Source: an uncultured Dehalococcoidales bacterium (GTDB lineage: Bacteria; Chloroflexota; Dehalococcoidia; GIF9; AB-539-J10). Taken from it: 64,000 nucleotides of DNA. Shown here in pieces: positions 15,206-38,454 of the stretch. The translations under genes were made by a program, and so were the position numbers. The stretch is from contig CAZEQL010000001.1 in the NCBI GenBank assembly GCA_964514415.1, positions 6,510 through 70,509 on the forward strand. The letters run 5' to 3'. The first letter of the stretch is position 1. Each line of letters begins with the position of its first letter. The notes below the pieces were generated by a model that was not told where the DNA came from, did not search any database, and saw only the letters and a program-made list of their open reading frames with translations.

Positions 15206-15290
15206 CTTAGGTGATAGCAAAGCATAAAACTCTAGCACGCCTGATTCAGCAATTCTACACGGCAGGCAGCTTTTATAAGGCTAGATATGG

Positions 15291-17048: not shown

Positions 17049-17083
17049 TCAGATATAGATAAGAGCTTCCTTCTAGAGGGTGA

Positions 17084-20668: not shown

Positions 20669-21363
20669 AGAAGAGCTACATCGTCCTGGCATTGCTACTG
20701 GCTTTAAGTATAGGTTTTGCCATTTCCCCTGCTTTGTTTCCTTCGTTCAATGCTTTGGCAAACTGGGGCTTAGTAGCAATTCTGCTAGCCGTTCTGATCA
20801 TATTAGCCTTTTTCTTCAAGTTTGAATCAGTCGCTCTGGGCTCTAAAGAGATAGCGTTAGTTTCCATGTTGGCCACTACATCGGCAGTTCTAAGAATTCC
20901 ATTTGCTGCTATTCCCAGCTTTCAACCTTGCACTTTTTTGATAATTTGCTCTGGATATGTCTTTGGGCCCATATCTGGTTTCATGGTAGGAGCGATGACG
21001 CCACTCATCTCCAATTTTTTCTTAGGGCAGGGTCCCTGGACGTTATATCAAATGCTTGCCTGGGGATTGATAGGGTATGGGGCTGCTTATCTCAGGCGAT
21101 TCAATCTGGACAGGAAAGGACTGATTGTTATTGGTGTTATTTGTGGTTTCGTTTTTGGCTTCCTCACGAATATCTACTTCTGGCTATTCTTTACTTATCC
21201 CCTTACACTCAGAACTTTAATCCTTGTCCAAATTAGCAGTCTTTGGTTTGACATCTCTCATGCCGCAGGAAATGCCATCTTTCTCGGACTCTTTGGCACA
21301 AAGACTATTGGTGTGTTGGAGAGATACAAGAAGCGCTTCAACTGGAAGTTATCATCAAGTTGA
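20665..21363 (+). CDS. putative ECF transporter substrate-specific (S) component
   Basis: 232-aa small hydrophobic protein with about 6 predicted TM segments. Its start is translationally coupled to the EcfAA' stop (overlapping ATGA). Family not recognised. Confidence 0.5.
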   Translation: MKKSYIVLALLLALSIGFAISPALFPSFNALANWGLVAILLAVLIILAFFFKFESVALGSKEIALVSMLATTSAVLRIPFAAIPSFQPCTFLIICSGYVFGPISGFMVGAMTPLISNFFLGQGPWTLYQMLAWGLIGYGAAYLRRFNLDRKGLIVIGVICGFVFGFLTNIYFWLFFTYPLTLRTLILVQISSLWFDISHAAGNAIFLGLFGTKTIGVLERYKKRFNWKLSSS

Positions 21364-21571
21364 GATATTTGGAGCTTTTGGGCTACGAGACGCAATATGA
21401 GACGCTAAAAGAGGAATAGTGTGACGATGCGGAGTGAATCGCATCCACACAGAAGGAATAGATTCAGGTCTACACAGGAAATTCTAAAGGTACAGCTATG
21501 GACACTTCGGATCTGACTTTTCGGGGATGCCACCTCACCTCATCGTTTGGGCTATGGTAAACCGGCCAAAG

Positions 21572-22426
21572 ATGATTGTAACTAAGGAACTCACCAAAAT
21601 ATACGGTGGAATCAGAGCAGTTGAGACCTTAGATCTGGAAGTGCATACGGGGGAGATGTTTGGATTTCTGGGTCCCAATGGCGCTGGCAAGACCACGACT
21701 ATCCGCATCTTGACTACTTTAACCAAGCCATCTTCAGGACATGCCTGGATAAACAGCTTCGACGTGGTGAAGAACCCGAGACAGGTAAGAAAGGAGTTCG
21801 GAATAGTGCAGCAGCACTTGAGCCTAGATTGGGAGCTGACCGTATGGGAGATTTTGGAATTGCACGCTCGGCTGCATCACCTAAAGCTAAATGAGCGGCG
21901 GCAGCGCATCGCCGAGTTGCTTGACTATATAGGACTGACCAAGCAAACTAATCAACTGGTCAGGGAGCTTTCAGAAGGGATGAAAAGGCGGGTGATGATT
22001 GCCCGCGCTCTCATACACCACCCCAAAGTGCTCTTCCTCGATGAGCCCACAGCAGGGGTGGATGCCCAGAGCCGACGCCATGTCTGGGATATGATACGCG
22101 GCATGAACTCAGCTGGCACCACCGTTTTTCTCACTACCCATTACATCGAGGAGGCAGAGGCTCTCTGCCAGCGAGTGGGGATAATCCACCAGGGGCAATT
22201 GATCGCCCTAGGCAGCCCCCTGGAGCTCCGGCTGCGCCTAGGGCTGGTCACCGTAGAGACACTCTCTAACAATAAAAACACCCACTATCACTACTTCCCT
22301 AACAGAGCTGCAGCGACAGGCTACGTTCAGAGCCTACCCTCCGACGTTAAGACCATCATCGTGCGGGAATCGAATCTAGAAGATGTCTTCGTAGAGCTGA
22401 CCGGGCGAAAGGTAGGTGACGAATAA
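21572..22426 (+). CDS. ABC transporter ATP-binding protein (ABC-2 / DrrA-like exporter type)
   Basis: Walker A GPNGAGKTT, signature LSEGMKRRV, Walker B FLDEP. The ATG at 21572 is preferred over the upstream extension in the ORF track. Confidence 0.8.
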   Translation: MIVTKELTKIYGGIRAVETLDLEVHTGEMFGFLGPNGAGKTTTIRILTTLTKPSSGHAWINSFDVVKNPRQVRKEFGIVQQHLSLDWELTVWEILELHARLHHLKLNERRQRIAELLDYIGLTKQTNQLVRELSEGMKRRVMIARALIHHPKVLFLDEPTAGVDAQSRRHVWDMIRGMNSAGTTVFLTTHYIEEAEALCQRVGIIHQGQLIALGSPLELRLRLGLVTVETLSNNKNTHYHYFPNRAAATGYVQSLPSDVKTIIVRESNLEDVFVELTGRKVGDE

Positions 22427-22427
22427 C

Positions 22428-23162
22428 ATGGATTTCTACTCCATTCTCTGGACAGATTTAAGGATTTTACGGCGCCAATGGTGGCGGCTTCTTGTCACCA
22501 CCATGATTAGCCCCCTGCTGTACTTAATAGCCTTTGGCTGGGGGTTAGGGCGGGGAATCAATATCGAGGGTACAAATTACCTCGAGTTCGTGATACCAGG
22601 CATAGTCGCCCTTACCGCCATGACCATCAGCTTCAATGGTGCCGGAATGAAGCTCAACGTGGATCGCCTTTATTGCAAGAGCTTCGACGAATGCTTGATG
22701 TCTCCCGTTAGTCACCTTTCGTTAATCCTGGGCAAGGCGTCAATCGGCGTGGTGCGTGGTCTCATTAGCTCCATAGCCTTCCTGGTAGTGGCTTATCTGC
22801 TATCACCCACCTTAACCTTCAGCCCTCTTTTCGTGGTAACTCTGGTGCTCACCTGCTTCATCTTCGCCTTTATGGGAGTCCTCATTGCGCTACTGGTGAA
22901 GGCACATGAAGACATGGCTACCTTCAGCAGCCTGATATTACTGCCGATGACCTTTCTCTGTGGCACCTTCTTCTCCCTGAGCCAATTGCCCGAGGGACTA
23001 AAGGTCGCCCTGTACATCCTTCCCCTGACACATTCCAGCCTGTGCTTGCGAGCAGCATCTCTGGGCCAGCCCTTCCCCTGGCTGTCACTGCTGGCCATCG
23101 TGGGTTTTGGAATAGCCTTTCTTCTGGGGTGTGTAATAGCTCTGAGGAGAGCGAGTATATAG
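22428..23162 (+). CDS. ABC-2 family transporter permease
   Basis: About 245 aa, 6 TM segments, immediately downstream of the ATPase. ATG at 22428. Confidence 0.7.
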   Translation: MDFYSILWTDLRILRRQWWRLLVTTMISPLLYLIAFGWGLGRGINIEGTNYLEFVIPGIVALTAMTISFNGAGMKLNVDRLYCKSFDECLMSPVSHLSLILGKASIGVVRGLISSIAFLVVAYLLSPTLTFSPLFVVTLVLTCFIFAFMGVLIALLVKAHEDMATFSSLILLPMTFLCGTFFSLSQLPEGLKVALYILPLTHSSLCLRAASLGQPFPWLSLLAIVGFGIAFLLGCVIALRRASI

Positions 23163-23255: not shown

Positions 23256-23285
23256 TTGACATGGCAAAAACATATGTTTTATAAT
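23256..23285 (+). promoter_or_regulatory. consensus sigma70-type promoter: TTGACA (23256-23261), 18-nt spacer, TATAAT (23280-23285)
   Basis: Perfect hexamers about 130 nt upstream of the BtuF-like start. The leader is homologous to the leader of gene 13994. Confidence 0.5.
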
Positions 23286-23413: not shown

Positions 23414-24478
23414 ATGAATAGCATTAAAAAGAAATTTGGTATATGGGGTAGTCTACTGCTTGCGTTGGCGCTGGTGGTGGCAATGTCGCTTCCTGCAACC
23501 AGTCTGGCTACCACTTATCCCATAACCCTCACCGACGACTTAGGCCGGGAGGTCACCATTGAGGCATTACCACAGAGAATAGTGTCTCTAGCCCCTTCCA
23601 ACACCGAGATACTATTTGCCCTGGGCTTGGGGGATAGAGTGGTGGGAGTGACAGACTTCTGCGACTACCCACCGGAGGCTCAGGAGAAGGAAAGCATAGG
23701 AGGTCCCTGGACACCGGATGTAGAAAAGCTAGTTGCTCTTCAGCCTGACTTTGTACTGGCTGCAGCTATCAATCCTATCGATGTTATTAACACCCTGGAG
23801 GGATTGGGGGTTACGGTATTCGGCGTAGAAGCCACCGATTTAGATGACATACTTCATGATATCAGGACGGTAGGGCAAATAACCGACAAGGAAGCGGGGG
23901 CAGATGCGATTACAACTGACATGCAAAACAAGATAGATACAATAACCGCAGAGACAGCGGGGCTTCCCCAGAATGAAAAGCCCAGGACGTTCCACATTTG
24001 CTATCACGAGCCCATATGGACTGCAGGCAATGGCACCTTCATCCATGATTTGATTGAAAAGGCAGGGGGAGTGAATATTTTTGCCGACATTGATGACTAT
24101 CAGTCAGTCGACATCGAGGCGGTAATCGGGCGCAATCCCGAGGTAATCATAGTAACGGCGATGGGTGGCACGGCATCCGGAACATGGGACTGGGTACTTA
24201 CCGAGCCCCGGCTTGCGGGTGTATCAGCCCGTCAAAATGGAAGAGCGTACTATGTGGAATCTAACTGGGTTGAGCGCCCAGGACCACGAATAGTGCTTGG
24301 CTTGGAGGCGGTGGCTAAATACATCCATCCCGAGCTTTTCTTCGACCCCTGGGATTACGATGAAGATGGCAATGGAGACATCAACAAGGCTGAAGCCATC
24401 GAATCCATCCAGGACTACTTTAACGGTTTGATAGCTAAGGCGCAGGCGATAGAAGTCGTGACACTCTACTTTGGATAA
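23414..24478 (+). CDS. BtuF-like periplasmic corrinoid/iron-siderophore binding protein (cluster 8 binding protein) with C-terminal EF-hand-like extension
   Basis: Signal peptide. TroA-like binding fold (LAPSNTEILFALG, DFVLAA). C-terminal DEDGNGDINKAE matches the canonical 12-residue EF-hand/dockerin Ca loop (D1, D3, N5, G6, I8, E12). Confidence 0.7.
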   Translation: MNSIKKKFGIWGSLLLALALVVAMSLPATSLATTYPITLTDDLGREVTIEALPQRIVSLAPSNTEILFALGLGDRVVGVTDFCDYPPEAQEKESIGGPWTPDVEKLVALQPDFVLAAAINPIDVINTLEGLGVTVFGVEATDLDDILHDIRTVGQITDKEAGADAITTDMQNKIDTITAETAGLPQNEKPRTFHICYHEPIWTAGNGTFIHDLIEKAGGVNIFADIDDYQSVDIEAVIGRNPEVIIVTAMGGTASGTWDWVLTEPRLAGVSARQNGRAYYVESNWVERPGPRIVLGLEAVAKYIHPELFFDPWDYDEDGNGDINKAEAIESIQDYFNGLIAKAQAIEVVTLYFG

Positions 24479-24490
24479 TTAGGGGAAAAT

Positions 24491-26497
24491 ATGAGAAGGA
24501 AATTATTATCGAGAGGGTTCTTTTCCACCCTGGCGGCAGTTGTGCTGATAGCAGTTATAATCGCACCAGTACTGGCGGCGCCAGCAACCGCTACCAGGAC
24601 ACTCCCCACGTCGGTAGAATCAGTAGCCGAGTTCAATGTCGCCATTGAGGCTTCAGGCTGTGGTTTTGCCGGTCAGGTGGTGGAAACGCTGCCTGATGGC
24701 TTTACCTATGTCGGCTGCGATTCGGAAGATGTCGGAGTTGAGCAAACAGGCAACACAATCAAGTTCACCTTTATGGGTGATTCGGTGAGCTTTATCTATA
24801 CCGCGAGAGCGCCAACGGTCGAGACTACCACTGCTTATACCTTTCATCAGGGCATAGTTAAGGATGAGAATCACATTGAATATCCCATTCCGGACAGCTC
24901 AATAATTGTAACTGCACCTGGTCCCGCGACCTGTACTTTAACCATGGCGGTGAGCGGGAATGGCTCGACCACCCCCGCGGTGGGCGGTCACACTTATGAC
25001 GAAGGAACCGTAGTAGATATCAGCGCCACGGCAAACTCAGGCTGGCGATTTGACCATTGGTCCAGCAATGTTGCCAACCCTGCTTCCTCATCCACCACGA
25101 TAACCATGGACAGCGATAAAACGGTCACCGCCTATTTCACCCTCTTTACCGGGGCGTCGGGCACCAGGACACTTCCGACATTGGTGACATCAGGAGCCGA
25201 GTTCAATGTCGCCATTGAGGCTTCAGGCTGTGGCGACTTCGGTCAGGTAGTGGAAACACTACCCGATGGATTTACCTATGCCGGCTGTGATTCGGAAGAC
25301 GTTGGAGTTGAGCAAACAGGCAACACAATCAAGCTCTCTTTCTTCGATTCGGCAAGCTTTATTTACAAGGTTAAGGCGCCAAGAGTTGCCGCTACCACTA
25401 CCTATACCTTCCAGGGCGAAATCCTGGATGAGGACAGGATTTCCTACCCCATTCAAGATGATGATATAACAGTACTGGTAACATCAGGCACCAGGATTCT
25501 CCCGGCATCGGTGACATCGGGAGACAAGTTCGCTATCACTATTGAGGCTTTGGGATGTGGCGACTTCGGTCAGGTGGTGGAGATCTTGCCCGACGGGTTT
25601 ACCTACGTGAGCAGTTCTCTCCCAACAGGCCAGGTTGAACAGACAGGCAGTATGGTCAAGTTCTCTTTCTTCGATTCAGCAAGCTTTACCTACAAAGTTA
25701 CGGCACCAAGAGTTGCCGCTACCACTACCTATACCTTCCAGGGCGAAATCCTGGATGAGGACAGGATTTCCTACCTCATTGAAAATGATGACATAACAGT
25801 AGTAAATGAGCCACCTGTTGCCAATGCCGGCACTGACCAAACGGTTTATATCCATCCTCCCGCCACCACTGCCAAGGTAACACTCGCTAGCTCTGGTTCT
25901 TATGACCCAGAAGGAGACTCTCTTACCTACGAATGGACATGGAACAGCACTACTGTTACTGAGGGCAATCCAACGATCGAGCTTCCTCTGGGAACTACCA
26001 CAATCACCCTGGTGGTAAACGACGGCAACTCGGATTCATCTCCCGATACCGTAAATATCATCGTACTGGAGTTGAGGAAGTCCAATGAATTATCTAAGAA
26101 GCCGGCAAACTTTGTGGCTTCTTATCTGCATATCTCACCAGAGCAAGTTCTACCCAATCAGCAAGTTGAAATCTCAATCAATATAGGCAATCATGGCGGG
26201 GAGAAAGGTAGCCATACCACTTCCTTGTACATCAACAGGCAGTTAGAAGACAGATGGGTAGTTGGTGTTTCCCCTGGCTCCTGCCAGAATGTGGTGTTCA
26301 GGTTAAGTAAAACAACACCAGGAACTTATCAAGTATCTTTAGAAGGACACCAAGGTCAGTTCGTTGTGCTAGCTCCACTCACAACTACCTATCCCTCTGG
26401 TGGCTTGGGCACAGGTGGCATAATAACCATTATAGTTGTATCTCTAGTGCTCGTTGCAGCAATAGTGTTTCTAATCGCTAGAACCAGAAGAGAGTAA
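24491..26497 (+). CDS. cell-surface protein: 3 tandem ~110-aa novel domains + InlB-B-repeat-like domain + PKD-like domain + CARDB-like domain + C-terminal TM anchor
   Basis: Signal peptide. Thrice-repeated (A/G)TRTLP...FNVAIEASGCG(F/D)(A/F)GQVVE(T/I)LPDGFTY... block. PANAGTDQT...SYDPEGDSLTYEWTW resembles PKD. C-terminus is paralogous to 15291 and 26656. Confidence 0.6.
   Translation: MRRKLLSRGFFSTLAAVVLIAVIIAPVLAAPATATRTLPTSVESVAEFNVAIEASGCGFAGQVVETLPDGFTYVGCDSEDVGVEQTGNTIKFTFMGDSVSFIYTARAPTVETTTAYTFHQGIVKDENHIEYPIPDSSIIVTAPGPATCTLTMAVSGNGSTTPAVGGHTYDEGTVVDISATANSGWRFDHWSSNVANPASSSTTITMDSDKTVTAYFTLFTGASGTRTLPTLVTSGAEFNVAIEASGCGDFGQVVETLPDGFTYAGCDSEDVGVEQTGNTIKLSFFDSASFIYKVKAPRVAATTTYTFQGEILDEDRISYPIQDDDITVLVTSGTRILPASVTSGDKFAITIEALGCGDFGQVVEILPDGFTYVSSSLPTGQVEQTGSMVKFSFFDSASFTYKVTAPRVAATTTYTFQGEILDEDRISYLIENDDITVVNEPPVANAGTDQTVYIHPPATTAKVTLASSGSYDPEGDSLTYEWTWNSTTVTEGNPTIELPLGTTTITLVVNDGNSDSSPDTVNIIVLELRKSNELSKKPANFVASYLHISPEQVLPNQQVEISINIGNHGGEKGSHTTSLYINRQLEDRWVVGVSPGSCQNVVFRLSKTTPGTYQVSLEGHQGQFVVLAPLTTTYPSGGLGTGGIITIIVVSLVLVAAIVFLIARTRRE
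25150..25823 (+). repeat. two tandem ~337-bp intragenic direct repeats (about 95% identical over at least 105 bp, e.g. 25338-25442 vs 25675-25779)
   Basis: Direct reading: near-identical stretches ...gcaagctttatttacaaggttaaggcgccaagagttgccgctaccactacctataccttccagggcgaaatcctggatgaggacaggatttcctacc... recur with a period of 337 nt inside CDS 24491..26497. Confidence 0.7.
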
Positions 26498-26655
26498 CGT
26501 AGAGTGTCCAAAGCGCAGATTAAAAAGAGCAGCTAGTAATATTTGCGTCAGGTGGAGGTGGTACTAATACTATGCCACCTCCACAAAGTGATAACCAAGG
26601 CACCAGCAACATAATTTGTGATGCCGTATTCTGGATGATAAGGGTGAGAGGAAAA

Positions 26656-27951
26656 ATGCTATCGAGAAGGGTCATTCCTTCAATAGCAGCAATTATACTG
26701 ATAGCAGTTATAGCTGCCCCGGCCCTGGCGTCGCCAGCGACAGCCACGCGGACCCTTCCGTCATCGGTAGCTTCAGGAGCCACTTTCAACGTCGCCATTG
26801 AGGCTTCAGGCTGCGGTTTTGCTGGTCAGGTAGAGGAGACCTTGCCTGATGGGTTTACCTATCTCAGTTGCACCCCTGATGATATTGGAACCCAAAAATC
26901 AGGCAACACAGTCAAGTTCACCTTCCTCGGGAATTCAGCAAGTTTTACCTATAGTGCCAAGGCACCAACAATCGACACTATCACCACCTATACCTTCCAC
27001 GGCGTAGTCAAGGATGAGGATAAGAATGAATATCCTGTCGATGATGATGAGATAACTGTGACCATGGGTGGGCCTCCCCCAGAAACTTACATTCTGACTA
27101 TGGCGGTGGATGGAAGTGGCTCAACCACCCCTTCAGTGGGCAACCATATCTATGATGTCGGAGACGTAGTGAGCATCAGCGCCACACCAGCCTCAGACTG
27201 GCAATTTGACCACTGGTCAAGTAACATTGCCGACCCTGATTCTCCATCTACCACGGTAACCATGGATAGAGATAAAACTATCACCGCTCATTTCAGCCCA
27301 GGCAGCAGCAGTGCGAACGACCTCATAACCTATACCTTAACAGTAACCTATGAACCAAGCGATGGCGGAAGTGTTATCCTCAGCCCTTCGGAATTAGGCA
27401 GCCATTATGAGAAGGACACTTCTATCAAGCTAACCGTTATCCCTTCTGAGGGTCATATCTTTTCTTGCTGGGGCGGTGATCTCACCGGAAACGCCAATCC
27501 CGTTACCATAGCTATGGACTCTGACAAGAATATTACCGCCAATTTTGCATCGCCCACGCGGGGAAACCTGGCCAGTTTTGCAATCTCCCCCCTCAATATC
27601 TCGCCAGAGCAAGTTCAGCCTAACCAGACAGTCAGCATCTCCGCCAGTATAACCAACAATGGTGAGAAAACTGGAACTTATGAAGCCCTCCTTTATGTCA
27701 ATGAGCAAGTGGAGGACAGTCAACTGGTGGAGATTTCACCTGGTTCATCCCAGAATGTGGTCTTTAGTGTAACCAAGGCAACCCCGGGAGTTTATACCGC
27801 CTTACTGGGAGAGCAGCAAGGGGAATTCACCGTGGCGAATAACGCTTCTAATAGGAATCTCGACACCAGTAGCACGATAGCTATTGTGGTTATCATCGTA
27901 CTTGTTGTAGCTCTGGTATTCATATTCCGTAGAATTAGGAGAGGAACGTAA
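26656..27951 (+). CDS. cell-surface protein paralog: 1 novel ~110-aa domain + two InlB-B-repeat-like domains + CARDB-like domain + C-terminal TM anchor
   Basis: The ATG at 26656 gives the signal peptide MLSRRVIPSIAAIILIAVIAAPALA, aligning with the 24491 protein. The same domain order follows and the C-terminus is homologous. Confidence 0.6.
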   Translation: MLSRRVIPSIAAIILIAVIAAPALASPATATRTLPSSVASGATFNVAIEASGCGFAGQVEETLPDGFTYLSCTPDDIGTQKSGNTVKFTFLGNSASFTYSAKAPTIDTITTYTFHGVVKDEDKNEYPVDDDEITVTMGGPPPETYILTMAVDGSGSTTPSVGNHIYDVGDVVSISATPASDWQFDHWSSNIADPDSPSTTVTMDRDKTITAHFSPGSSSANDLITYTLTVTYEPSDGGSVILSPSELGSHYEKDTSIKLTVIPSEGHIFSCWGGDLTGNANPVTIAMDSDKNITANFASPTRGNLASFAISPLNISPEQVQPNQTVSISASITNNGEKTGTYEALLYVNEQVEDSQLVEISPGSSQNVVFSVTKATPGVYTALLGEQQGEFTVANNASNRNLDTSSTIAIVVIIVLVVALVFIFRRIRRGT

Positions 27952-28165
27952 CTACGTACAAATTAAAGGGAGTATCAAAAAAGGCAGCCTTTATTCAATC
28001 AACAAAGTTGCTTAACAACCCGTCCGATTCTAAGCAAAGCGAGAAATTAGGACCCCTCGTCACTGTTCGGAAGACAGACTAAATAATCCTCAATCAGTTG
28101 AACTTGTTTATAGTAAGCTTAGGTTGTAATATTATGGATATTTGGCAAGCTCGAGAGGTAGTCAA

Positions 28166-28810
28166 ATGAAAGTTTTCGCTTCATGGAGTGGAGGGAAAGA
28201 ATGCGCTTTGGCAACCTATAGAGCAATTTCACAAGGGTATGAAGTCTTATATTTGGTTAACTTTATCTCTGAAGATGGGGAGAGATCAAGGTCTCATGGG
28301 ATTAAGGCCGGTGTTTTAGCTTCGCAAGCAGAAGCTATTGGCATCCCTCTGATTCAGGTGAAAACGTCCTGGGAAGAATATGAGGAGAACTTTAAGAAGG
28401 TCGTGAGAGAGCTCAAGCATAAGGGGATAGAAGGAGGAGTTTTTGGCGATATAGACTTAAAAGAGCATAGGGAGTGGGTAGAGAGGGTCTGTAATGAGCT
28501 AGGGATAAAGGCGTTTCTGCCCCTTTGGGGAACAAAGGCAGAAGAATTAATTGGTGAATTTCTTAAGCTAGAATTCAAAGCTATGGTGGTAGCCACTAGA
28601 TTAGAAGAGAGCTTATTGGGAAAAGTTTTGGATGAAACTCTTGTGAGTCAGGTTACCAAACTCGGCTCCCATCCCTGTGGAGAAGGAGGAGAATACCATA
28701 CTTTTGTCACTGCAGGACCCATCTTTAAGAAGACACTCAAGATTACTCAGGGTGCGAAAGAAAAGAGAGATAATATGTGGTTTCTGGAAATCTCAGCTAA
28801 GTTGCAATGA
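28166..28810 (+). CDS. PP-loop ATP pyrophosphatase of the DUF71 / Dph6 (MJ0570) family
   Basis: N-terminal SWSGGKEC PP-loop and the family-typical EGGEYHT motif. The start is placed at the ATG at 28166 with its RBS; the track starts at an upstream TTG. Confidence 0.65.
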   Translation: MKVFASWSGGKECALATYRAISQGYEVLYLVNFISEDGERSRSHGIKAGVLASQAEAIGIPLIQVKTSWEEYEENFKKVVRELKHKGIEGGVFGDIDLKEHREWVERVCNELGIKAFLPLWGTKAEELIGEFLKLEFKAMVVATRLEESLLGKVLDETLVSQVTKLGSHPCGEGGEYHTFVTAGPIFKKTLKITQGAKEKRDNMWFLEISAKLQ

Positions 28811-28896
28811 GAGAGGCGCTCCATTGCTCTACGTTCCCGAGCAAATCGCAGTGCTTTGGAAATTCTTCGTTATGCTCAGAATAAAGGAGTGAACTT

Positions 28897-29661
28897 GTGA
28901 ATATCTATCACATATCTTATTCATTGGACCATTATGGGACTAGAGAAGTGACTCTTTCCTTCCAGGGATGTAATTTTGAGTGCATCGGTTGTCTTCGAAA
29001 AAGGAGCAAGTATGATATCTATGCCGATAAAGAAGAGCGCATTGATATGAGCTTAGAGGGGATTATCCAAAAGGTAAATGAACTTAAGCCACACCGAGTT
29101 TATTTTGGGGGCTATGAACCTACTCTCGACCCTGATCTAATAAGTATAATCAAGACACTTTCAAGAGCTGATCGTTATCTATGTCTGTGTACCAACGGAA
29201 GTAAGTTAGATGAAGATTATGTAAAGGAATTAAGGAGAGCGGGGATAAATCAAGTTTTCCTCAGTGTGAAAGCTTTCGATCCAGGAAAACATATCTACTA
29301 CACAAAAGTCTCTAATGAGCTAAGTTTAAGAGCAATAAGCCTTCTTTCCAAAATGGAAGACGAGCATTTTATGCTTCATGTGGAGACAATCCTAATTCCA
29401 GGTGTAAACGATCCCGTGGATATTGAGAAGCTGGCAACATTTATCTCAGAGATAGACCCTACGATCCCACTCTGGATAGATCCCTGGGTTCCTACCTCAG
29501 AGGAATTTCGAGAACCAACAAAACAGGAGCTAATAGAAGCAGTCTCCAGGGCAATGAAGCATCTTTATGTCGTTTCTTACCTGCCTTTACACTCCGAAAT
29601 AAGTGAGATACGAAAAACAAGGAAGAAGACAGAGTTTGTGAACTGCCTGGCGAGAGAGTGA
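28897..29661 (+). CDS. small radical SAM protein (activase / QueE-like type)
   Basis: CNFECIGC (CxxxCxxC) 25 aa from the N-terminus. 254 aa. GTG start with an AAGGAG RBS 7 nt upstream. Confidence 0.7.
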   Translation: MNIYHISYSLDHYGTREVTLSFQGCNFECIGCLRKRSKYDIYADKEERIDMSLEGIIQKVNELKPHRVYFGGYEPTLDPDLISIIKTLSRADRYLCLCTNGSKLDEDYVKELRRAGINQVFLSVKAFDPGKHIYYTKVSNELSLRAISLLSKMEDEHFMLHVETILIPGVNDPVDIEKLATFISEIDPTIPLWIDPWVPTSEEFREPTKQELIEAVSRAMKHLYVVSYLPLHSEISEIRKTRKKTEFVNCLARE

Positions 29662-29666
29662 TTAAA

Positions 29667-29753
29667 ATGAATATCTATCATATCACTTATGCCCTAGAGG
29701 CTAAACACACTTGTCCTCTTTTAAGGGGGGATGGAAGGTTTAAGCTCAAGTAG
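29667..29753 (+). pseudogene. 5' stub duplicate of the radical SAM gene (28-codon ORF MNIYHITYALEAKHTCPLLRGDGRFKLK)
   Basis: The first ~24 nt, atgaatatctatcatatcacttat, nearly match the start of gene 28897, gtgaatatctatcacatatcttat. It lies 6 nt after that gene's stop and is then unrelated. Confidence 0.3.
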
Positions 29754-29767
29754 TGCGGGTATATTAA

Positions 29768-30892
29768 ATGATGCACTTCTCTTCCGAGTCAGTTAGCAAA
29801 CCTGCTAGCGAATTTGCCCTATCCTACCCTCTTCGCTGGAAAGGCAAGGTTTATGCCTTAGTAGGACTCGCTGGGTTGCTTTTAGTAGTAATTATTTTTG
29901 CCACTACCCTGGGAAGCGTTCACATACCCTTCTCTACCTGTTTTCAAGTCCTTTTTTCCCAGGTGCCTTTTCTCCATATCGTCCCTCCCTGTCCTGAAAT
30001 TTTTGGCATGACCCTGACGATTGAGGGACTTGAGACGATAATCTTGGACGTCAGGCTTCCGCGCATCCTTTTGGCAGGTTTAGTAGGGGCAGCTTTGGCG
30101 GTAGCCGGAGCCACCTACCAAGGGTTGTTTCGCAATCCCCTGGCTGACCCTTATCTTCTCGGCGTGGCTTCGGGGGCCGGATTGGGAGCCACTACCGCCT
30201 TCCTCATCCCTTTCACCATCTCCTGGATGAGTTTCGGAGCCGTGCCATTGTTCGCCTTTATCGGCGCCATGAGTGCTGTTGCCATTGTCTATTCACTGGC
30301 CCGTGTGGGCAAGACACTGCCGGCAACTACCCTTATCCTGGCTGGAGTAGCTTTGGGCGCTTTCCTGTCCGCAATTACCTGTTACCTTATGACCATCTGC
30401 GGGGAGGAACTGCACGGGATTGTATTCTGGCTGATGGGAGGGCTTTCCCTGACCAAGTGGTCTGAAGTATGGACAGTCCTCCCCTGTGTACTGGCAGGTA
30501 TCGTAGTCATCTGTCTTCATGCTCGGCCTCTCAACGTGATGCAGCTTGATGAAGAGCAGGCACAACAATTGGGCATCAATGTAGAAAGAGTTAAACTCAT
30601 ATTGCTGGGTACTGCGACTCTTATCACCTCCTCCGCAGTCTGTTTCACCGGACTTATCGGTTTTGTAGGCATAATCGTTCCACACGCGGTGAGGCTTATC
30701 TGGGGACCAGACCATCGTTTCTTGCTTCCCCTATCTACCCTGGTCGGTGCCATATTCCTTATCCTGGCTGACACCCTAGCCCACACTCTACTTCCACCCA
30801 CAGAGATCCCAGTAGGAGTAATCACTGCCTTCTGTGGTGCTCCTTTCTTCCTTTATTTATTGCGAAGAAAGAAAGGCCTTGCTTTCTTCTAA
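29768..30892 (+). CDS. FecCD-family ABC permease (BtuC-like corrinoid/siderophore permease)
   Basis: About 370 aa with about 9-10 TM segments. FecCD signature region with Gly-rich TM segments. Confidence 0.8.
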   Translation: MMHFSSESVSKPASEFALSYPLRWKGKVYALVGLAGLLLVVIIFATTLGSVHIPFSTCFQVLFSQVPFLHIVPPCPEIFGMTLTIEGLETIILDVRLPRILLAGLVGAALAVAGATYQGLFRNPLADPYLLGVASGAGLGATTAFLIPFTISWMSFGAVPLFAFIGAMSAVAIVYSLARVGKTLPATTLILAGVALGAFLSAITCYLMTICGEELHGIVFWLMGGLSLTKWSEVWTVLPCVLAGIVVICLHARPLNVMQLDEEQAQQLGINVERVKLILLGTATLITSSAVCFTGLIGFVGIIVPHAVRLIWGPDHRFLLPLSTLVGAIFLILADTLAHTLLPPTEIPVGVITAFCGAPFFLYLLRRKKGLAFF

Positions 30893-30902
30893 GAGGAGAA
30901 AA

Positions 30903-31637
30903 ATGAGAGAAAAGGAAATCGAAATCAACTTAGAAGGGATAAAAGCTGGAATAATTTATCACCAGTTTCAAAGAATAGAAGTAAAGACCTTCTTAGCTTA
31001 CTTCGCCAAGGAAAGGAGGTGTTTAAACACCAGGGAGGGATTTAAGAAGATAAAAGTGGTGGCTAATAATTATACTCCTCCCAGTTTATGGGAATTTACG
31101 CATCAAAATTACGATGCTCATAGGAACCAGATTTTCAGCGACTTAAATCTTTCTCCAGCCAAAACAGCTATGCTATGTACCGGAGCGGATATGGATAACC
31201 TCGCCGTCAAGTGGGAAGAATACCAGGAGTTTAAAGTCTTTGCTCTGGTTACCGCAGGAATAAAATCCAATGCCCAAAGGATAGGGGTTGATAAAGCAGG
31301 GAGCCTGGAAAGAGAAGGAATTTTTGAGACTTTAGGCACTATTAACATAATAGTTCTAACCAACGCCTCGCTCTCAGAAGGGGCACTGGCTCGAGGGATA
31401 ATTACCTTAACTGAAGCAAAGGTAATAGCCCTTGAAGATTTGGATATTAGAAGCTCTTACAATCCTGAAATTCGAGCTACGGGCACAGGAACCGATAACG
31501 CTATAATAGTATCCGGTGGAGGGCCAAAGATAAATTATCTGGGTGGACATAGCAAGATGGGCGAGCTTATGGCCAGGGCAGTAACTTCGGCAGTGAAAGA
31601 GGCTATCTTTAAGCAAAACGGGATTGAAGTGCCATGA
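30903..31637 (+). CDS. cbiZ: adenosylcobinamide amidohydrolase (CbiZ-like)
   Basis: About 245-aa soluble protein between btuC and btuD, as in corrinoid salvage loci. Family assignment is from memory of CbiZ size and sequence pattern. Confidence 0.55.
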   Translation: MREKEIEINLEGIKAGIIYHQFQRIEVKTFLAYFAKERRCLNTREGFKKIKVVANNYTPPSLWEFTHQNYDAHRNQIFSDLNLSPAKTAMLCTGADMDNLAVKWEEYQEFKVFALVTAGIKSNAQRIGVDKAGSLEREGIFETLGTINIIVLTNASLSEGALARGIITLTEAKVIALEDLDIRSSYNPEIRATGTGTDNAIIVSGGGPKINYLGGHSKMGELMARAVTSAVKEAIFKQNGIEVP

Positions 31638-32440
31638 TTAAATTAAAGGATGTCAGTCTGGGCTATGACCATCAAGCCATCTTAAATGATATAAATCTGA
31701 AGGCGGTGCCAGGCAAAATGTTAGGTCTCATCGGACCTAATGGCTCTGGGAAATCAACCTTGCTCAAGGGAATAACCCGGGTGATTAATCTTTTCTCCGG
31801 GTACATCTTCGTTGACGGCAGGGACATAAAAGACATTAAGAGAGATGAAATTGCTCGCCTTCTCGCCACGGTACCGCAAAGTCCCGTTTTACCTGAGGCG
31901 TTTACTGCCTTTGAAATGGTGCTTATGGGACGAACACCCCACCTGGGATTTCTCCGCTATGAAAGCAGAGAGGATATAGCCATTGCCTGGCAAGCGATGG
32001 AGATGACGCAGACAAAAGCTTTGGCCGAGCGCAGAATGGGTGAGCTTTCTGGGGGTGAGAGACAAAGGCTCATCATTGCTAGAGCACTGACCCAGCAGCC
32101 GAAGGCAATCCTTCTTGATGAGCCGACAGCACATCTGGACATAAATCATCAGGTCGAGATTCTCAACCTGGTTAAGAGGCTCTGCCTGGAGCAAAATTTG
32201 ACCGTCATTGCTGCCCTGCACGATTTGAATTTAGCCGCTCAATACTGTGATTGGCTAGTCATGCTAAATAAAGGGGGAATTTACACTGAGGGAACAGCAC
32301 AGGATGTACTTACAGTTCAGAATATTAAAAGTGTTTATGGAACTGAAGTATGCGTCTATCCTCATCCAGTTAATAAGTTGCCTACTACCCTTATTACGGC
32401 TGGTGGAGGTATAGAGGAAAGAACTTATACTCAGCGGTAG
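31634..32440 (+). CDS. ABC ATP-binding protein (BtuD/FepC-like)
   Basis: Walker A GPNGSGKST, signature LSGGERQRL, Walker B LLDEP. Translationally coupled (ATGA) to cbiZ. Confidence 0.85.
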   Translation: MIKLKDVSLGYDHQAILNDINLKAVPGKMLGLIGPNGSGKSTLLKGITRVINLFSGYIFVDGRDIKDIKRDEIARLLATVPQSPVLPEAFTAFEMVLMGRTPHLGFLRYESREDIAIAWQAMEMTQTKALAERRMGELSGGERQRLIIARALTQQPKAILLDEPTAHLDINHQVEILNLVKRLCLEQNLTVIAALHDLNLAAQYCDWLVMLNKGGIYTEGTAQDVLTVQNIKSVYGTEVCVYPHPVNKLPTTLITAGGGIEERTYTQR

Positions 32441-32447
32441 AAAAACT

Positions 32448-33380
32448 GTGGAACTTTTATTCATTTTGTTCTTGGCTCTAGTACTCGACCTTCTATTTGG
32501 AGAGCTACCTCGAGCCATACATCCAGTGGTGTGGATGGGAAAACTCATCTCCCTCTGGAAAAAGCTCGCCCCTGTTCGGGGCACGAAGGCTCAATTAGCC
32601 TATGGCGGCGGCACAGTTCTGCTTACTATTCTTATTTTCGCTTCGCCCGTTTATTTCCTTCTACTTTATGTAAGGAATATCAGTCCTGTAGCCTATGTAA
32701 TCACTGGTGCCCTGCTACTGAAAACGACCTTTTCTTTTAAAGAACTGCGCCGGAGCGCTTTTGACATCAAGGCGCTTTTAGCCGAGGATAATCTAGAGGA
32801 GGCGCGGGAGAAGATGCCTGCTCTGGTCAGCCGTGAAACTCAAAATCTGGGAAAGCCAGCGCTGGTATCAGCAACGGTGGAGTCGCTGGCGGAGAATACC
32901 TGTGATAGCTTCGTTGCCCCTTTGTTCTACTTTTTGCTTCTTGGCGTGCCTGGCGCTGTGGCTTATCGGGTGGTGAACACCTGGGACTCCATGATCGGCT
33001 ATCATGGGAAATATGAATACTTAGGCAGGTGCCCTGCTAAATTGGATGACGTCCTAAATTTTATCCCATCTCGGATCTCAGGGCTCCTGCTAGTAATAGC
33101 TGCCTATCTATGCAGGAAAGATGGCAAGAACGCCTGGCAGGTCATGCTTCACGACCATGGCAAAACTGAGAGTCCCAATGCGGGCTGGCCAATGAGTGCC
33201 GTAGCCGGAGCACTCAGGGTTCGACTAGAAAAAGCCGGTTGCTATAGCTTGGGCAATCCTAACAATCTCTTATCACCCCAGCTCATTTCCTCTGGAATAA
33301 ATTTAGTGGAAGTGGCTGCTCTACTTTGGGTTTTAGTCTATTCGATTGTGGAGGTAACGTATTTTGCCTTTATTGCCTAG
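32448..33380 (+). CDS. cbiB: adenosylcobinamide-phosphate synthase CbiB (CobD family)
   Basis: 310-aa polytopic membrane protein. HP..W and GK motifs of the CbiB/CobD family. GTG start. Confidence 0.75.
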   Translation: MELLFILFLALVLDLLFGELPRAIHPVVWMGKLISLWKKLAPVRGTKAQLAYGGGTVLLTILIFASPVYFLLLYVRNISPVAYVITGALLLKTTFSFKELRRSAFDIKALLAEDNLEEAREKMPALVSRETQNLGKPALVSATVESLAENTCDSFVAPLFYFLLLGVPGAVAYRVVNTWDSMIGYHGKYEYLGRCPAKLDDVLNFIPSRISGLLLVIAAYLCRKDGKNAWQVMLHDHGKTESPNAGWPMSAVAGALRVRLEKAGCYSLGNPNNLLSPQLISSGINLVEVAALLWVLVYSIVEVTYFAFIA

Positions 33381-33396
33381 GCCGGAGATACAAAGT

Positions 33397-34470
33397 ATGG
33401 CAGTCTGCCCACATGGGGGTATTGACTATGGAGAGGTAGGAATACTGGGCATTGCTCCTCAAGATATTCTTGATTTCAGTGCTAATCTAAACCCTTTTGG
33501 CCCACCACCAAGAGCAATGGAGGCATTATGCGAGCGCCATAACGAACTGAGTGAGATAATTTCCCATTATCCTGATTCCGAAGTTCGCTGTCTGAGGTGT
33601 TCCCTGGCTGATAAACTATGTGTACATATGGAAAATATACTCGTTGGTAGCGGTTCTACCGAGCTTATACGTCTTGCTGTTTTGGCTTATTTTGGTAAAG
33701 GGGATTGTGTTTTAATCATTGAGCCTACTTACGGTGAATACCAGGTTGCCTGCCAGATTGCTGGAGCATCTCTTATAAAACAGCAGCTCTCCCCACAAAA
33801 TGGTTTCTATCTCAATGCAAATGAGACCGTTGAATTAATCCAACAGCATCGCCCCAAAGGTGTCTTTGTCTGTAATCCCAATAATCCTACAGGGAGGTAT
33901 CTTTCACGAATAGATTTCGAGCGAATTCTGGATGTCGGTAAGGATTCTTTAATAATTCTAGACGAAGCTTATGTCAGCTTCGTGGATGGCACCTGGTCCT
34001 CTCTGAATATGATTGAAGGAAATAACCTACTCATCTTGCGCTCTATGACCAAGGACCATACCATGGCCGGACTCCGCCTGGGTTATGGAATAGCAAAGGA
34101 GGAAATTATCGCCAACCTTCGTCGCATCTGTCCGCCATGGAATGTCAACGCGCTGGCTCAAAAAGCGGGGGTTATCGCTGTGAACGAAGAGGAATACTTA
34201 AAGAGATGCCAGAATGAGATTAGAGAGGCGAAGGCTTATCTTTATGCTGAGCTTTCTCATCTCGGCTTGCCCCCACTCCCTTCAGAGGCAAATTTCTTCC
34301 TGGTCGAGGTGGGAGATGCTTCAGGAGTGCGGCGTGAATTGCTTGAACGAAAAATACTGGTGCGGGATTGTACCTCGTTTGGCCTGCCCCGATACATCCG
34401 CATCGCCCCCCGCACCCTTCCCGAATGCCAGAAGTTGGTTGTCGCTATTATGGAGGTGAGAGGCAGGTGA
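33397..34470 (+). CDS. cobD: L-threonine-O-3-phosphate decarboxylase (CobD, PLP-dependent class I/II aminotransferase fold)
   Basis: About 357-aa aminotransferase-fold protein with SMTKDH-type PLP-lysine context, located between cbiB and cobQ. Confidence 0.65.
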   Translation: MAVCPHGGIDYGEVGILGIAPQDILDFSANLNPFGPPPRAMEALCERHNELSEIISHYPDSEVRCLRCSLADKLCVHMENILVGSGSTELIRLAVLAYFGKGDCVLIIEPTYGEYQVACQIAGASLIKQQLSPQNGFYLNANETVELIQQHRPKGVFVCNPNNPTGRYLSRIDFERILDVGKDSLIILDEAYVSFVDGTWSSLNMIEGNNLLILRSMTKDHTMAGLRLGYGIAKEEIIANLRRICPPWNVNALAQKAGVIAVNEEEYLKRCQNEIREAKAYLYAELSHLGLPPLPSEANFFLVEVGDASGVRRELLERKILVRDCTSFGLPRYIRIAPRTLPECQKLVVAIMEVRGR

Positions 34471-34475
34471 TTAAA

Positions 34476-35996
34476 ATGCGGGCTAAGACTCTGATGATAC
34501 AGGGAACCTCTTCCTCGGTGGGCAAGAGTGTTCTGGTTACTGCCCTCTGCCGCATCTTCAAGCAGGATGGCTTTCGTGTAGCACCCTTTAAGGCACAGAA
34601 TATGGCGCTCAATTCTTTCGTCACTAAGGATGGGGAGGAAATGGGTCGGGCTCAAGTGGTACAAGCAGAGGCAGCAGGGATCGAGCCCAGAGTGGATATG
34701 AACCCTGTATTGATCAAACCAGAGGCAGATGCTAAGTCTCAGGTAATCGTTCGAGGTAAAGTGGCAAAAACTATCTCTGCCGAGAAATATTACCGCTACA
34801 CTCCTTATTTACTAAAGATAGTGGAAGACTCGCTAAACCATCTCTGTTCTACCTACGATGTGGTGATTATCGAAGGAGCTGGAAGTCCGGCGGAGATAAA
34901 TCTCAAGGCGAGGGAGATAGTCAACATGCGGATATCCAAAATAGCCCATGCTCCTGTTATTCTGGTAGGGGATATTGACAGGGGAGGAGTTTTTGCCTCC
35001 CTGGTGGGCACACTGGAGTTACTGGAAGAAGATGAGCGTAACTACATTAAGGGTTTTATTATTAACAAGTTCCGCGGCGACTTGAAGCTGCTCCAGCCGG
35101 GACTTGAGCTTCTCGAGAAACACACGGCAAAACCCGTCCTTGGCGTAGTGCCTTACTTTCGCGGCATTACCATTGCCCAGGAAGACTCAGTCTATCTTGA
35201 GGAGAGGATAGAAAATACGCCGTCTTCTGACTTGGATATCGCCATTATTCACCTCCCCCATATTTCCAACTACGATGATTTTGACCCACTGGAAGAGGAG
35301 GGTTGCAGGGTGCACTATATAGCCTATCCTTGCGAGCTAGGCTCCCCTGACCTCATTATACTGCCTGGCACTAAGAGTACTATCAGCGATCTTCTTTATC
35401 TCTGGCGGTCGGGATTGGCTGAGGATATTATTCAGCAGGCGAGGAACGGTGTGCCAGTAGTGGGCATCTGTGGTGGCTATCAAATATTGGGGAGAAGCCT
35501 CCACGACCCAGGCGGCATAGAATCATCGGAGGACAGTGCCCTGGGATTGGGGTTGCTGGACATGACGACTACTTTTACTCCGGGAAAATCCACCACTCAA
35601 GTCAGGGCGCGAGTGGCAGCCAACCATGGATTACTTGAGAAGATGAAGGGACAGGAACTCGTGGGCTATGAGATACACATGGGGCAGACCGAGAACATTG
35701 GAGATATGAGTGCCTTCCACATCTTTGAAACACCACAGGGCAAGACTGATTATTCCGATGGCACACTCAATGCCCAGGGCATGGTATTGGGAACCTATTT
35801 GCATGGCTTGTTCCACAATTTTGGCTTCAGTCGAACCTTGCTTAATTTCCTGCGACGACGCCGTGGATTGCCCCAGAGGTCAGGTGGAGCTACAATGGGA
35901 AAAGAACAGCAATATGACAGGCTGGCAGAGTTGGTGCGCCGCAGCCTTGATATGGCCGCCATCTATAAAATAATGGATGAGGGCATCAAGGCATGA
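34476..35996 (+). CDS. cobQ: cobyric acid synthase
   Basis: N-terminal P-loop GTSSSVGKS (CobQ/CobB/MinD-like) and C-terminal glutamine amidotransferase domain (GICGGYQ). ATG at 34476 with RBS. Confidence 0.85.
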   Translation: MRAKTLMIQGTSSSVGKSVLVTALCRIFKQDGFRVAPFKAQNMALNSFVTKDGEEMGRAQVVQAEAAGIEPRVDMNPVLIKPEADAKSQVIVRGKVAKTISAEKYYRYTPYLLKIVEDSLNHLCSTYDVVIIEGAGSPAEINLKAREIVNMRISKIAHAPVILVGDIDRGGVFASLVGTLELLEEDERNYIKGFIINKFRGDLKLLQPGLELLEKHTAKPVLGVVPYFRGITIAQEDSVYLEERIENTPSSDLDIAIIHLPHISNYDDFDPLEEEGCRVHYIAYPCELGSPDLIILPGTKSTISDLLYLWRSGLAEDIIQQARNGVPVVGICGGYQILGRSLHDPGGIESSEDSALGLGLLDMTTTFTPGKSTTQVRARVAANHGLLEKMKGQELVGYEIHMGQTENIGDMSAFHIFETPQGKTDYSDGTLNAQGMVLGTYLHGLFHNFGFSRTLLNFLRRRRGLPQRSGGATMGKEQQYDRLAELVRRSLDMAAIYKIMDEGIKA

Positions 35997-36538
35997 CGGA
36001 AAACGGAGAAAAGAAGGAAGTCTTCTCAAAGGGGCTAACTCAGGTTTATACTGGGGACGGCAAAGGCAAAACTACAGCAGCCCTAGGGTTGGCTCTCAGA
36101 GCGGTGGGTTGTGGAATGAAAGCCATCATCATCCAATTTATCAAAGGTGACCATACTTGTGGGGAGCATCTTTTTGCTGCCCGATACCATCCCTTCGACA
36201 TAGTGCAGCTAAACACTGAGAGCAGCTTCAACCAGACTACAGAGGGGCTTTGTTCAATTACTCGGCAGACTTTAGCCCTCGCCGAGAGAGCCATCACCCA
36301 AGGTGGCTACGACGTGGTTGTCCTCGATGAGATATTTGTTGCTGTAAGTAAAGGACTAGTAAGTACGGAGCAAGTATTAAGTTTGATGAATAAGAAGCCT
36401 GAGAAAGTGGAACTAATTTTAACTGGACGCGGGGCGCCGAAGGAAATCATTCGACAAGCAGACCTGGTTACCCAAATGGTGGCAGTTAAACATCCATTTA
36501 CTAAAGGAATTGCAGCACGAAGAGGCATTGAATACTGA
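35993..36538 (+). CDS. cobA: cob(I)yrinic acid a,c-diamide / corrinoid adenosyltransferase (CobA/CobO/BtuR type)
   Basis: 181 aa, P-loop-like GDGKGKTTAA, family-typical length, overlaps the cobQ stop. Confidence 0.8.
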   Translation: MTENGEKKEVFSKGLTQVYTGDGKGKTTAALGLALRAVGCGMKAIIIQFIKGDHTCGEHLFAARYHPFDIVQLNTESSFNQTTEGLCSITRQTLALAERAITQGGYDVVVLDEIFVAVSKGLVSTEQVLSLMNKKPEKVELILTGRGAPKEIIRQADLVTQMVAVKHPFTKGIAARRGIEY

Positions 36539-36611
36539 AACCAGTAACTGATAGATGCAAGCTTTCAGATCGCATACCTTAACAAAATAAAGGAAGGGGA
36601 GGATAAAGGTA

Positions 36612-37667: not shown

Positions 37668-37683
37668 AAAAAAAGCAGAATAG

Positions 37684-38451: not shown

Positions 38452-38454
38452 AAT

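Follow-up and report, generated by a model that had tools for sequence, protein, structure and literature searches.

Most microorganisms that require vitamin B12 are unable to synthesize it and must scavenge it, and the steps that lead from import to reassembly of the cofactor are incompletely known. De Crecy-Lagard et al. (2012; PMC3541065) defined a DUF71-B12 subgroup of PP-loop ATP pyrophosphatases (PF01902/COG2102) that clusters with cbiB and, for 75 of 102 genes, with btuFCD; they predicted that it functions in B12 salvage. The subgroup motif, E-N-G-E-[FY]-H, carries a His at the position of Dph6 Glu188. DUF71-B12 and CbiZ were reported to be anti-correlated in bacteria, and the idea was put forward that the former substitutes for the latter there; no radical S-adenosylmethionine (SAM), CbiE-like, or NirJ-like partner is mentioned. 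A literature search found no later characterization of DUF71-B12. Here, we analyze a DUF71 gene and the small radical SAM gene that follows it in a 64,000-nucleotide stretch of DNA from an uncultured Dehalococcoidales bacterium (GenBank: GCA_964514415.1, contig CAZEQL010000001.1, positions 6,510–70,509 of the forward strand), referred to below as the window. All relatives of the organism's DnaJ that bear a name (72–76% identity) are labelled Dehalococcoidia bacterium. The DUF71 half of this locus is already published as a prediction. The radical SAM protein is the new element: many archaeal and some bacterial lineages have genes of its family within or next to operons for BtuFCD-type importers, and the protein and its context point to an undescribed step of B12 recycling.

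Both open reading frames (ORFs) and their motifs were found where an earlier note on this DNA had placed them (Table 1), and the gene calls of GCA_030611425.1, a public assembly containing this sequence, are identical to both. The family assignments of that note were also borne out by Pfam searches. The upstream protein matched PF01902 only (E = 2.5e-56, 191.1 bits versus a gathering score of 23.2; residues 1–210 aligned to model positions 1–215 of 219), and the downstream protein matched the radical SAM family PF04055 (E = 5.3e-22, 79.2 bits versus a threshold of 29.5). Both matches are far above the curated thresholds, which excludes chance.

The PP-loop of the DUF71 protein (SWSGGKEC, residues 6–13) fits the SGGKD/E pattern, and its GEGGEYHT segment aligns to GEGGEFET of PF0828 (PDB: 3RK1), so that a His stands where Dph6 has the catalytic Glu188 of its conserved EGGE/DxE motif. 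The His of this GE-x-GEYHT motif is present in every full-length DUF71 protein encoded beside a member of the radical SAM family. The gene sits between those for BtuF and BtuC, 3.6 kb upstream of CbiB, and the same btuFCD/cbiB clustering was seen in eight relatives (L087 included). Hundreds of relatives are 77–92% identical to the window protein, and all seen so far lie in btu operons. The PF01902 fold, the SGGK[DE] PP-loop, the His in place of Glu188, and the gene position between btuF and btuC are all shared with the DUF71-B12 subgroup (e.g., P. furiosus PF0295; PMC3541065). Judged by its sequence, the window protein is a member of this known, predicted-only subgroup, and the statement of the earlier note that bacterial DUF71 proteins are functionally unassigned had overlooked its definition in 2012. 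Two differences were apparent: the second motif position is G in the window and S in relatives, versus N in the published logo, and the window member shares its operon with CbiZ. Dph6 itself (PF0828) is homologous over ~190 residues (118 bits), and the ATP-binding residues are alike; by analogy, the window protein probably uses Dph6-type adenylation and ammonolysis chemistry. It differs from Dph6 in lacking Glu188 and in scoring 136 bits on the Dph6 equivalog model TIGR03679, under the 197.3 cutoff, and its host class, Dehalococcoidia, is bacterial and without EF-2 diphthamide (PMC3541065).

The radical SAM protein has a single cluster motif, C25-x3-C29-x2-C32, which is invariant family-wide; these are the only three invariant Cys residues. 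In this analysis, we define a BtuFCD-linked small radical SAM family by an N-terminal [NT]-[IV]-[YF]-H-I-x-[YF] motif, the motifs CNFxCxGC[ILV]R, GxEPT, TNG, and YT, a length of ~230–270 amino acids, and an adjacent btuF/C/D gene. The window protein has all of these features, a further family-specific region (WRxPT/FxEP[TS]), and every family-invariant residue (F22, C25-N26-F27, C29, C32, G72, E74-P75-T76, T99-N100, T136, P199, and P207, with G101 nearly invariant). By analogy, G72/E74/P75/T76 and T99/N100/G101 would form the SAM-binding motifs (GGE-like and ribose). No NCBIfam model reached its cutoff (best ~60 bits); the protein scored 61 bits versus 284 on the MoaA model and 63.5 versus 380 on the tungsten-cofactor maturase model, and it has no invariant auxiliary-cluster Cys. 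A word-index search of 5.8 billion proteins returned 42 relatives, the nearest at 62% identity and the named ones archaeal (Methanophagales and Thermoprotei), and when 1.84 billion cluster representatives were searched with a profile, just 26 clusters had E < 1e-30, which indicates that the family is rare. The literature searched contained no description of this protein family. No informative domain fusions were found in the top 150 representatives, where the oddities were a radical SAM-ThiS protein and long multi-domain radical SAM proteins with partial matches.

The AlphaFold (AF2) model of the radical SAM protein (pLDDT 88.9) was compared with the PDB using Foldseek, and the best match was the PflA activase (PDB: 3c8f and 8fo0; TM 0.71–0.73, E = 1e-12, 17% identity), followed by NifB and MoaA. 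The protein shares with PflA and NrdG a minimal single-cluster radical SAM fold of ~250 amino acids with an N-terminal beta-hairpin ahead of CX3CX2C, but it differs from them in its low identity to PflA, the failure of activase models, the lack of a glycyl-radical partner, and its family-specific motifs. The combination of a small radical SAM enzyme with a PP-loop enzyme that uses ATP to activate a carboxylate follows the same logic as QueE and QueC in 7-deazaguanine synthesis. This comparison, drawn in the earlier note, stands as an analogy only: neither protein showed homology to either family in Pfam or NCBIfam, and no QueE model was among the 25 best NCBIfam matches of the radical SAM protein. 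QueC belongs to another Pfam family (ExsB) and not to PF01902, and the genes in the window lie in a context of corrinoid uptake instead of queuosine.

When one genome per GTDB species was scanned, 38 radical SAM loci were obtained, and 40 loci, including earlier ones, were annotated with the window's own proteins as queries. The 38 loci belonged to ANME-1/Methanophagales, metagenome-assembled genomes labelled Methanosarcinales, Bathyarchaeia, Thermoprotei, Hadarchaeota, Nezhaarchaeales, Methanomethylicota, Ignisphaera/Desulfurococcales, Dehalococcoidales, Thermodesulfobacteriota, and Omnitrophota. A BtuF/C/D gene lay within 300 bp of the radical SAM gene in 29 of the 40 loci, a DUF71 or AsnB-like PP-loop gene within 5 kb in 13, and CbiZ, CbiB, CobD, or CobS within 8 kb in 10. 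In a metagenome scan, whose locus set overlaps the genome set in part, 28 of the 30 loci with sequence on both sides had a corrinoid-linked gene within 5 kb. An unbiased Pfam census of 148 neighboring ORFs from 28 radical SAM clusters (<80% identity) was headed by Peripla_BP_2 (19), ABC_tran (14), and FecCD (12), followed by Aminotran_1_2, Diphthami_syn_2, and further Radical_SAM proteins (5 each), CobD_Cbib, Asn_synthase, and TP_methylase (4 each), and CbiZ (2). The linkage of the radical SAM gene to btu and cob genes is thus kept across distant lineages, and for btu it persists to 31% radical SAM identity, in ANME-1, Bathyarchaeia, Hadarchaeota, Desulfurococcales, Dehalococcoidales, and Omnitrophota. 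The earlier note had named two outcomes that would count against its idea, placement of the radical SAM protein among the activases and lack of conserved linkage to cob/btu genes, and both checks came out in its favor. Typical orders were BtuF-DUF71-rSAM-BtuC-CbiB-CobD...CbiZ in ANME-1, AsnB-like-rSAM-DUF71 in Hadarchaeota, and CbiZ-rSAM-rSAM in Bathyarchaeia (rSAM, radical SAM). The most constant neighbor is BtuFCD, not DUF71. The "pair" of the earlier note is therefore adjacent in the window but not obligate, as the closest relatives of the DUF71 protein (80–92% identity) have CobO instead. ANME-1, Bathyarchaeia, Hadarchaeota, Thermoprotei, and Dehalococcoidia, in which genes of the radical SAM family are tied to BtuFCD importers, are anaerobes of key importance in sediments, seeps, and hot springs.

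DUF71-B12 proteins, AsnB-like amidoligases, CbiE-like methyltransferases, NirJ/AhbD-like radical SAM/SPASM proteins, CbiZ, and CbiB recur near the radical SAM gene. In seven loci (L036, L113, L114, L122, L087, L089, and L010) a larger set recurs beside BtuFCD. It comprises the small radical SAM protein and a NirJ2/AhbD-like radical SAM/SPASM protein (341–373 amino acids), together with DUF71-B12, an AsnB_C-like PP-loop protein that lacks a glutaminase domain, and either one or two methylases of CbiE-like type. L122, L114, and L036 contain, in this order, BtuF-BtuC-BtuD, the small radical SAM protein, a radical SAM/SPASM protein of 361–373 amino acids, two CbiE-like methylases, the AsnB_C-like protein, and DUF71; L113 reads DUF71-CbiE-BtuF-CbiE-BtuC-BtuD-rSAM, and the Dehalococcoidia-like L087 and L089 read rSAM/SPASM-BtuF-CbiE-rSAM-BtuD-CbiB-CobD. 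The methylases exceed the CbiE domain model (133–158 bits versus 92.9), and the large radical SAM protein is nearest to the NirJ2, AhbD, NirJ1, and AhbC models, under their cutoffs. NirJ, AhbC, and AhbD are radical SAM enzymes that act on the acetate and propionate side chains of tetrapyrroles; the window has no such gene, and its small radical SAM protein lacks SPASM and scores 32–39 bits on their models. By analogy with such enzymes, the members of the module are of types that act on tetrapyrrole rings and side chains, which suggests that imported corrinoids are chemically tailored or repaired, beyond re-assembly. Of the larger set the window has DUF71 and the small radical SAM protein only, and the two appear to be its minimal form. 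No description of the larger module, or of the CobO/radical SAM swap reported below, was found in a literature search. Two other candidates were rejected: a diphthamide-like pathway of a Dph5-like methylase and a Dph6-like ligase, as the TP_methylases pass the CbiE model and Dph5 models are absent, and a cytoplasmic BtuF-like carrier that hands substrate to the radical SAM protein, as signal or anchor segments are present in almost all of the BtuF-like proteins encoded next to it.

On balance, we judge it somewhat probable that both gene products are cytoplasmic accessory enzymes for the processing of imported corrinoids, encoded in a Dehalococcoidia import-and-salvage operon. The DUF71 protein, acting in the customary direction of its fold, would adenylate a side-chain carboxylate that is free in an incomplete or deamidated corrinoid after import, and ammonia would then give the amide. 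The radical SAM protein, with a single [4Fe-4S] cluster and SAM, would generate a 5'-deoxyadenosyl radical directed at that same corrinoid, and the open, minimal PflA-like barrel of the predicted structure would suit so bulky a substrate. This radical step would take place at or just after import, before CbiZ, CbiB, and CobQ together with CobT, CobS, and CobU rebuild the cofactor, and the two enzymes would belong to a common pathway without being an obligate pair. Candidate targets of the radical are the ring periphery or a side chain, in tailoring or repair, as suggested by the methylase, amidoligase, and NirJ-like partners, or the upper ligand of cobalt, as suggested by the CobO swap. The lower-ligand chemistry proposed in the earlier note found no support.

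Several observations weigh against this processing role. The re-amidation assigned to the DUF71 protein is inferred solely from Dph6 chemistry. BtuF/FecCD-type transporters carry haem and siderophores too. Unmistakable cob/cbi genes are present in only about one-quarter to one-half of the radical SAM loci, and a few ANME-1 loci (L020 and L028) have the radical SAM gene without a btu or cob neighbor. Searches for a cobalamin riboswitch or any other Rfam family found none that reached the gathering score anywhere in the window, nor any with E ≤ 1 between 17000 and 40000. Finally, the closest relatives of the operon are without the radical SAM gene, which indicates that it is dispensable for basic salvage.

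The setting described in the earlier note, among corrinoid transporter genes and upstream of cbiZ, cbiB, and cobQ, proved right: BtuF-like, BtuC, CbiZ, and BtuD proteins are encoded around the pair, and CbiB and CobQ downstream (Table 1). The array is co-directional and runs BtuF, two surface repeat proteins, DUF71, radical SAM, BtuC, CbiZ, BtuD, CbiB, CobD, CobQ, CobO, CobT, CobS, CobU. A strong promoter-like site upstream of BtuF is a candidate promoter for the whole array, and no terminator-like site was found on the + strand in the intergenic gaps from this site to 32000, although two matches lie inside BtuC. The co-directional array, the one strong promoter-like site, and the lack of intergenic terminator-like sites were counted in favor of the import-and-salvage operon proposed above. 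The N terminus of the BtuF-like protein is hydrophobic. Names of the Cob genes downstream of BtuD are based partly on DNA identity to the Pfam-annotated relative L049; for CobT, the product name on the CobT cluster agrees. In an exact-sequence look-up that cluster alone bore a product name, and neither protein of the pair did.

Table 1. Coordinates of the pair and of the surrounding features in the window
Feature	Coordinates	Strand	Evidence and remarks
Promoter-like site	23256–23285	+	TTGACA-18 nt-TATAAT, 12/12 matches to sigma-70 consensus; upstream of BtuF
BtuF-like substrate-binding protein, N-terminal signal/anchor	23414–24478	+	PF01497, E = 1.1e-37; BtuF model 122 bits, below cutoff
Surface repeat protein 1 (InlB B-repeat, CARDB, PKD-like, C-terminal membrane anchor)	24491–26497	+	
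Surface repeat protein 2	26572–27951	+	Paralogue of surface repeat protein 1
DUF71-B12-type PP-loop ATP pyrophosphatase, 214 amino acids	28166–28810	+	PF01902; ATG start; SWSGGKEC and CGEGGEYHTF, with GEGGEYHT His signature
Swapped cassette: radical SAM gene and both spacers	28801–29777	.	Replaces 716-bp CobO cassette of L050 (3073–3788)
Small radical SAM protein, 254 amino acids, single CX3CX2C, PflA-like minimal fold (predicted structure)	28897–29661	+	PF04055; GTG start, AGGAG ahead of start; QGCNFECIGC
28-codon ORF resembling the radical SAM-family N terminus	29667–29753	+	MNIYHITYALEAKHTC...; MNIYHITYALEAK...; MNIYHITYALEAKHTCPLL...; directly after the radical SAM stop
BtuC-like permease	29768–30892	+	PF01032, E = 7.7e-97; BtuC NF007081 337 bits, below cutoff
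CbiZ (adenosylcobinamide amidohydrolase family)	30903–31637	+	PF01955, E = 2.8e-49; L050 has one too
BtuD-like ABC ATPase	31634–32440	+	PF00005; corrinoid ABC ATPase model 256 bits, below cutoff
CbiB, CobD (aminotransferase-class), CobQ/CbiP	32448–35996	+	CobD_Cbib; 76% DNA identity to PF03186, PF00155, and PF01656/PF07685 genes of L049
CobO/CobA-type corrinoid adenosyltransferase	35993–36538	+	Insertion versus L049; 43% identity to slot CobO of L050
CobT, CobS, CobU (nucleotide-loop assembly)	36612–39045	+	71–78% DNA identity to PF02277, PF02654, and PF02283 genes of L049

Comparison with the near-identical locus L050 revealed a cassette swap. The flanks of L050 are 95.2% identical to 25730–28800 and 98.3% identical to 29778–32383 of the window, and the segment between them is unrelated: L050 encodes a 176-amino-acid CobO between DUF71 and BtuC, the slot of the radical SAM gene in the window. 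CobO stands beside DUF71 in all six Dehalococcoidia relatives without the radical SAM gene (L050 and five more). In the window, 35990–36585, which contains CobO, is a 596-bp insertion between CobQ and CobT relative to L049, and acquisition of this gene looks like compensation for the lost slot CobO. By sequence comparison, the DUF71/radical SAM pairing is one that has been assembled more than once, since the DUF71 protein has relatives at 77–92% identity and the radical SAM protein has none above 62%, its named ones being archaeal. GC content was not decisive as evidence of transfer (41% for the radical SAM gene versus 43% for the native DUF71 gene, 42% for CbiZ, and 43–45% for the genes of an upstream transporter described below). 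At least three forms of the radical SAM family are present in Dehalococcoidia: that of the window, a form at 47–49% identity (L087), and a group-2 form (in L033, with the genes arranged as ECF transporter-DUF71-BtuF-rSAM-AsnB-like; ECF, energy-coupling factor). The best matches of the 28-codon ORF that follows the radical SAM gene are weak, to group-2 N termini of Hadarchaeota and Omnitrophota (77% over 13 amino acids), and the CobO-BtuC spacer of L050 contains a decayed counterpart with ~70% DNA similarity. This ORF may, on such slight resemblance, be a relic of an older or second radical SAM gene at the site.

This natural swap provides a concrete, testable hypothesis, namely that the radical SAM protein is a SAM-dependent corrinoid adenosyltransferase in which the 5'-deoxyadenosyl radical, released by reductive cleavage of SAM, and a cob(II)-corrinoid recombine to form the Co–C bond; we regard it as possible, if unlikely. 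The enzyme would replace the ATP:co(I)rrinoid adenosyltransferase CobA/CobO as the first post-import step, supply adenosylated substrates for CbiZ and CbiB, bypass the difficult Co(I) state, and be a CobA/CobO stand-in for anaerobic archaea and some Dehalococcoidia. CobA/CobO acts first on imported corrinoids, adenosylation being the step with which cobinamide salvage canonically begins inside the cell (PMC3541065), and its gene holds the slot between DUF71 and BtuC in the relatives described above. Moreover, no CobO was found within the 5–8 kb flanks of the radical SAM-family loci, and neither the CobA_CobO_BtuR nor a PduO-type family was present in the neighbor census. The reaction itself would be the homolysis of adenosylcobalamin in reverse, which is established chemistry, and the hypothesis is chemically attractive. 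It is weakened, however, by the CobO that the window array still encodes 6 kb farther downstream, 43% identical to the one replaced. CobA/CobO has an unrelated P-loop fold (PF02572) and uses ATP and Co(I) chemistry, its equivalence with the radical SAM protein being a hypothesis only, and archaeal cobA is often located outside cob clusters, which makes its absence from 8-kb flanks weak evidence. In addition, the recurrent methylases, amidoligases, and NirJ/AhbD-like radical SAM proteins point to ring or side-chain chemistry. We know of no enzyme that performs such an adenosylation.

It is unlikely that the transporter and its accessory enzymes serve another metal-tetrapyrrole or chelate, such as haem, F430 or a breakdown product of it, or a siderophore, with a secondary link to cob genes. 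Peripla_BP_2 and FecCD are not B12-specific, all B12-specific NCBIfam models were below cutoff, a NirJ/AhbD-like radical SAM protein is part of the larger module, and many members of the small radical SAM family come from ANME-1 archaea, which are rich in F430. Against this, CbiZ, CbiB, CobD, and CobS recur in the same loci, the array in the window continues directly into CobQ, CobO, CobT, CobS, and CobU, the methylases of the module are CbiE-type, and the family is present in lineages not expected to make F430 (Desulfurococcales, Ignisphaera, and Dehalococcoidia).

The working hypothesis of PMC3541065, in which DUF71-B12 is an amidohydrolase that replaces bacterial CbiZ and cleaves pseudo-B12 or cobinamide, would leave the radical SAM protein unrelated; we consider this distinctly unlikely. 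It draws on the anti-correlation with CbiZ in bacteria, which is broken here: CbiZ shares the operon with DUF71 in the window and in L050, so the replacement idea does not fit, and the two also occur together in the archaeal loci L004, L006, and L047. PP-loop enzymes are, moreover, adenylate-forming ligases, an objection also raised by a reviewer of that paper.

That the radical SAM protein is a spare NrdG/PflA glycyl-radical activase or a recently inserted passenger without a role in the operon is highly improbable: although it matches PflA best in structure, is 25% identical to the window NrdG over 182 residues spanning the N-terminal G-x-R ... GCNFxC region, and arrived by a recent cassette swap, it scores far below the cutoffs of the activase models (PFLA 43.7 bits versus 231.75, NrdG2 36.4 versus 131.15, YjjW 43.1 versus 250.2), the families listed as shared by the 148 census neighbors include no glycyl-radical enzyme, all its invariant residues are intact, and btu linkage down to 31% identity is incompatible with a passenger gene. 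An activase for an orphan glycyl-radical enzyme was also ruled out, since the sole such enzyme in the window, NrdD (10926–13031, + strand; 1097 bits on NF006126), is followed by its own genuine NrdG2 (13049–13750; 206.6 bits versus 131.15), to which the radical SAM protein has only the identity given above.

Elsewhere in the array, homologues of the surface repeat proteins are found at the equivalent position in L049 and L050, and these proteins may serve in corrinoid capture at the cell surface. ANME-1 loci have very large BtuF-fusion or CARDB/PQQ proteins together with MotA/ExbB and DUF2149 in their place. In archaeal cob salvage clusters, a gene for a cofactor-independent phosphoglycerate-mutase-like metalloenzyme lies next to CobD (L004/L024, 3105–4352, and one more locus); it occurred twice in the neighbor census.

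Upstream of BtuF, 13994–21363 (+ strand) encodes a probable second corrinoid uptake system of the ECF type, with a weakly squalene-hopene-cyclase-like protein (13994), an InlB-repeat protein (15291), DUF4430 (17084), CbiQ (18043), a double ATPase (18962), and a 232-amino-acid membrane protein (20665), which had no match in NCBIfam and is an S-component candidate by its position in relatives only. L132 has this set ahead of BtuF-DUF71-CobO, and L033 has it ahead of DUF71. Between the ECF genes and BtuF lies a DrrA/DrrB-like ABC-2 exporter pair (21527–23162, + strand) with a GC content of 0.52–0.53 (0.62–0.65 at third positions), clearly above that of its neighbors, and this pair may be an insertion. 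In L049, L051, L132, L133, and the P0142 locus, which are Dehalococcoidia relatives without the radical SAM gene, a MarR/HTH_24/DUF7839 regulator is encoded directly upstream of the B12 uptake operon and may control it in place of a riboswitch.

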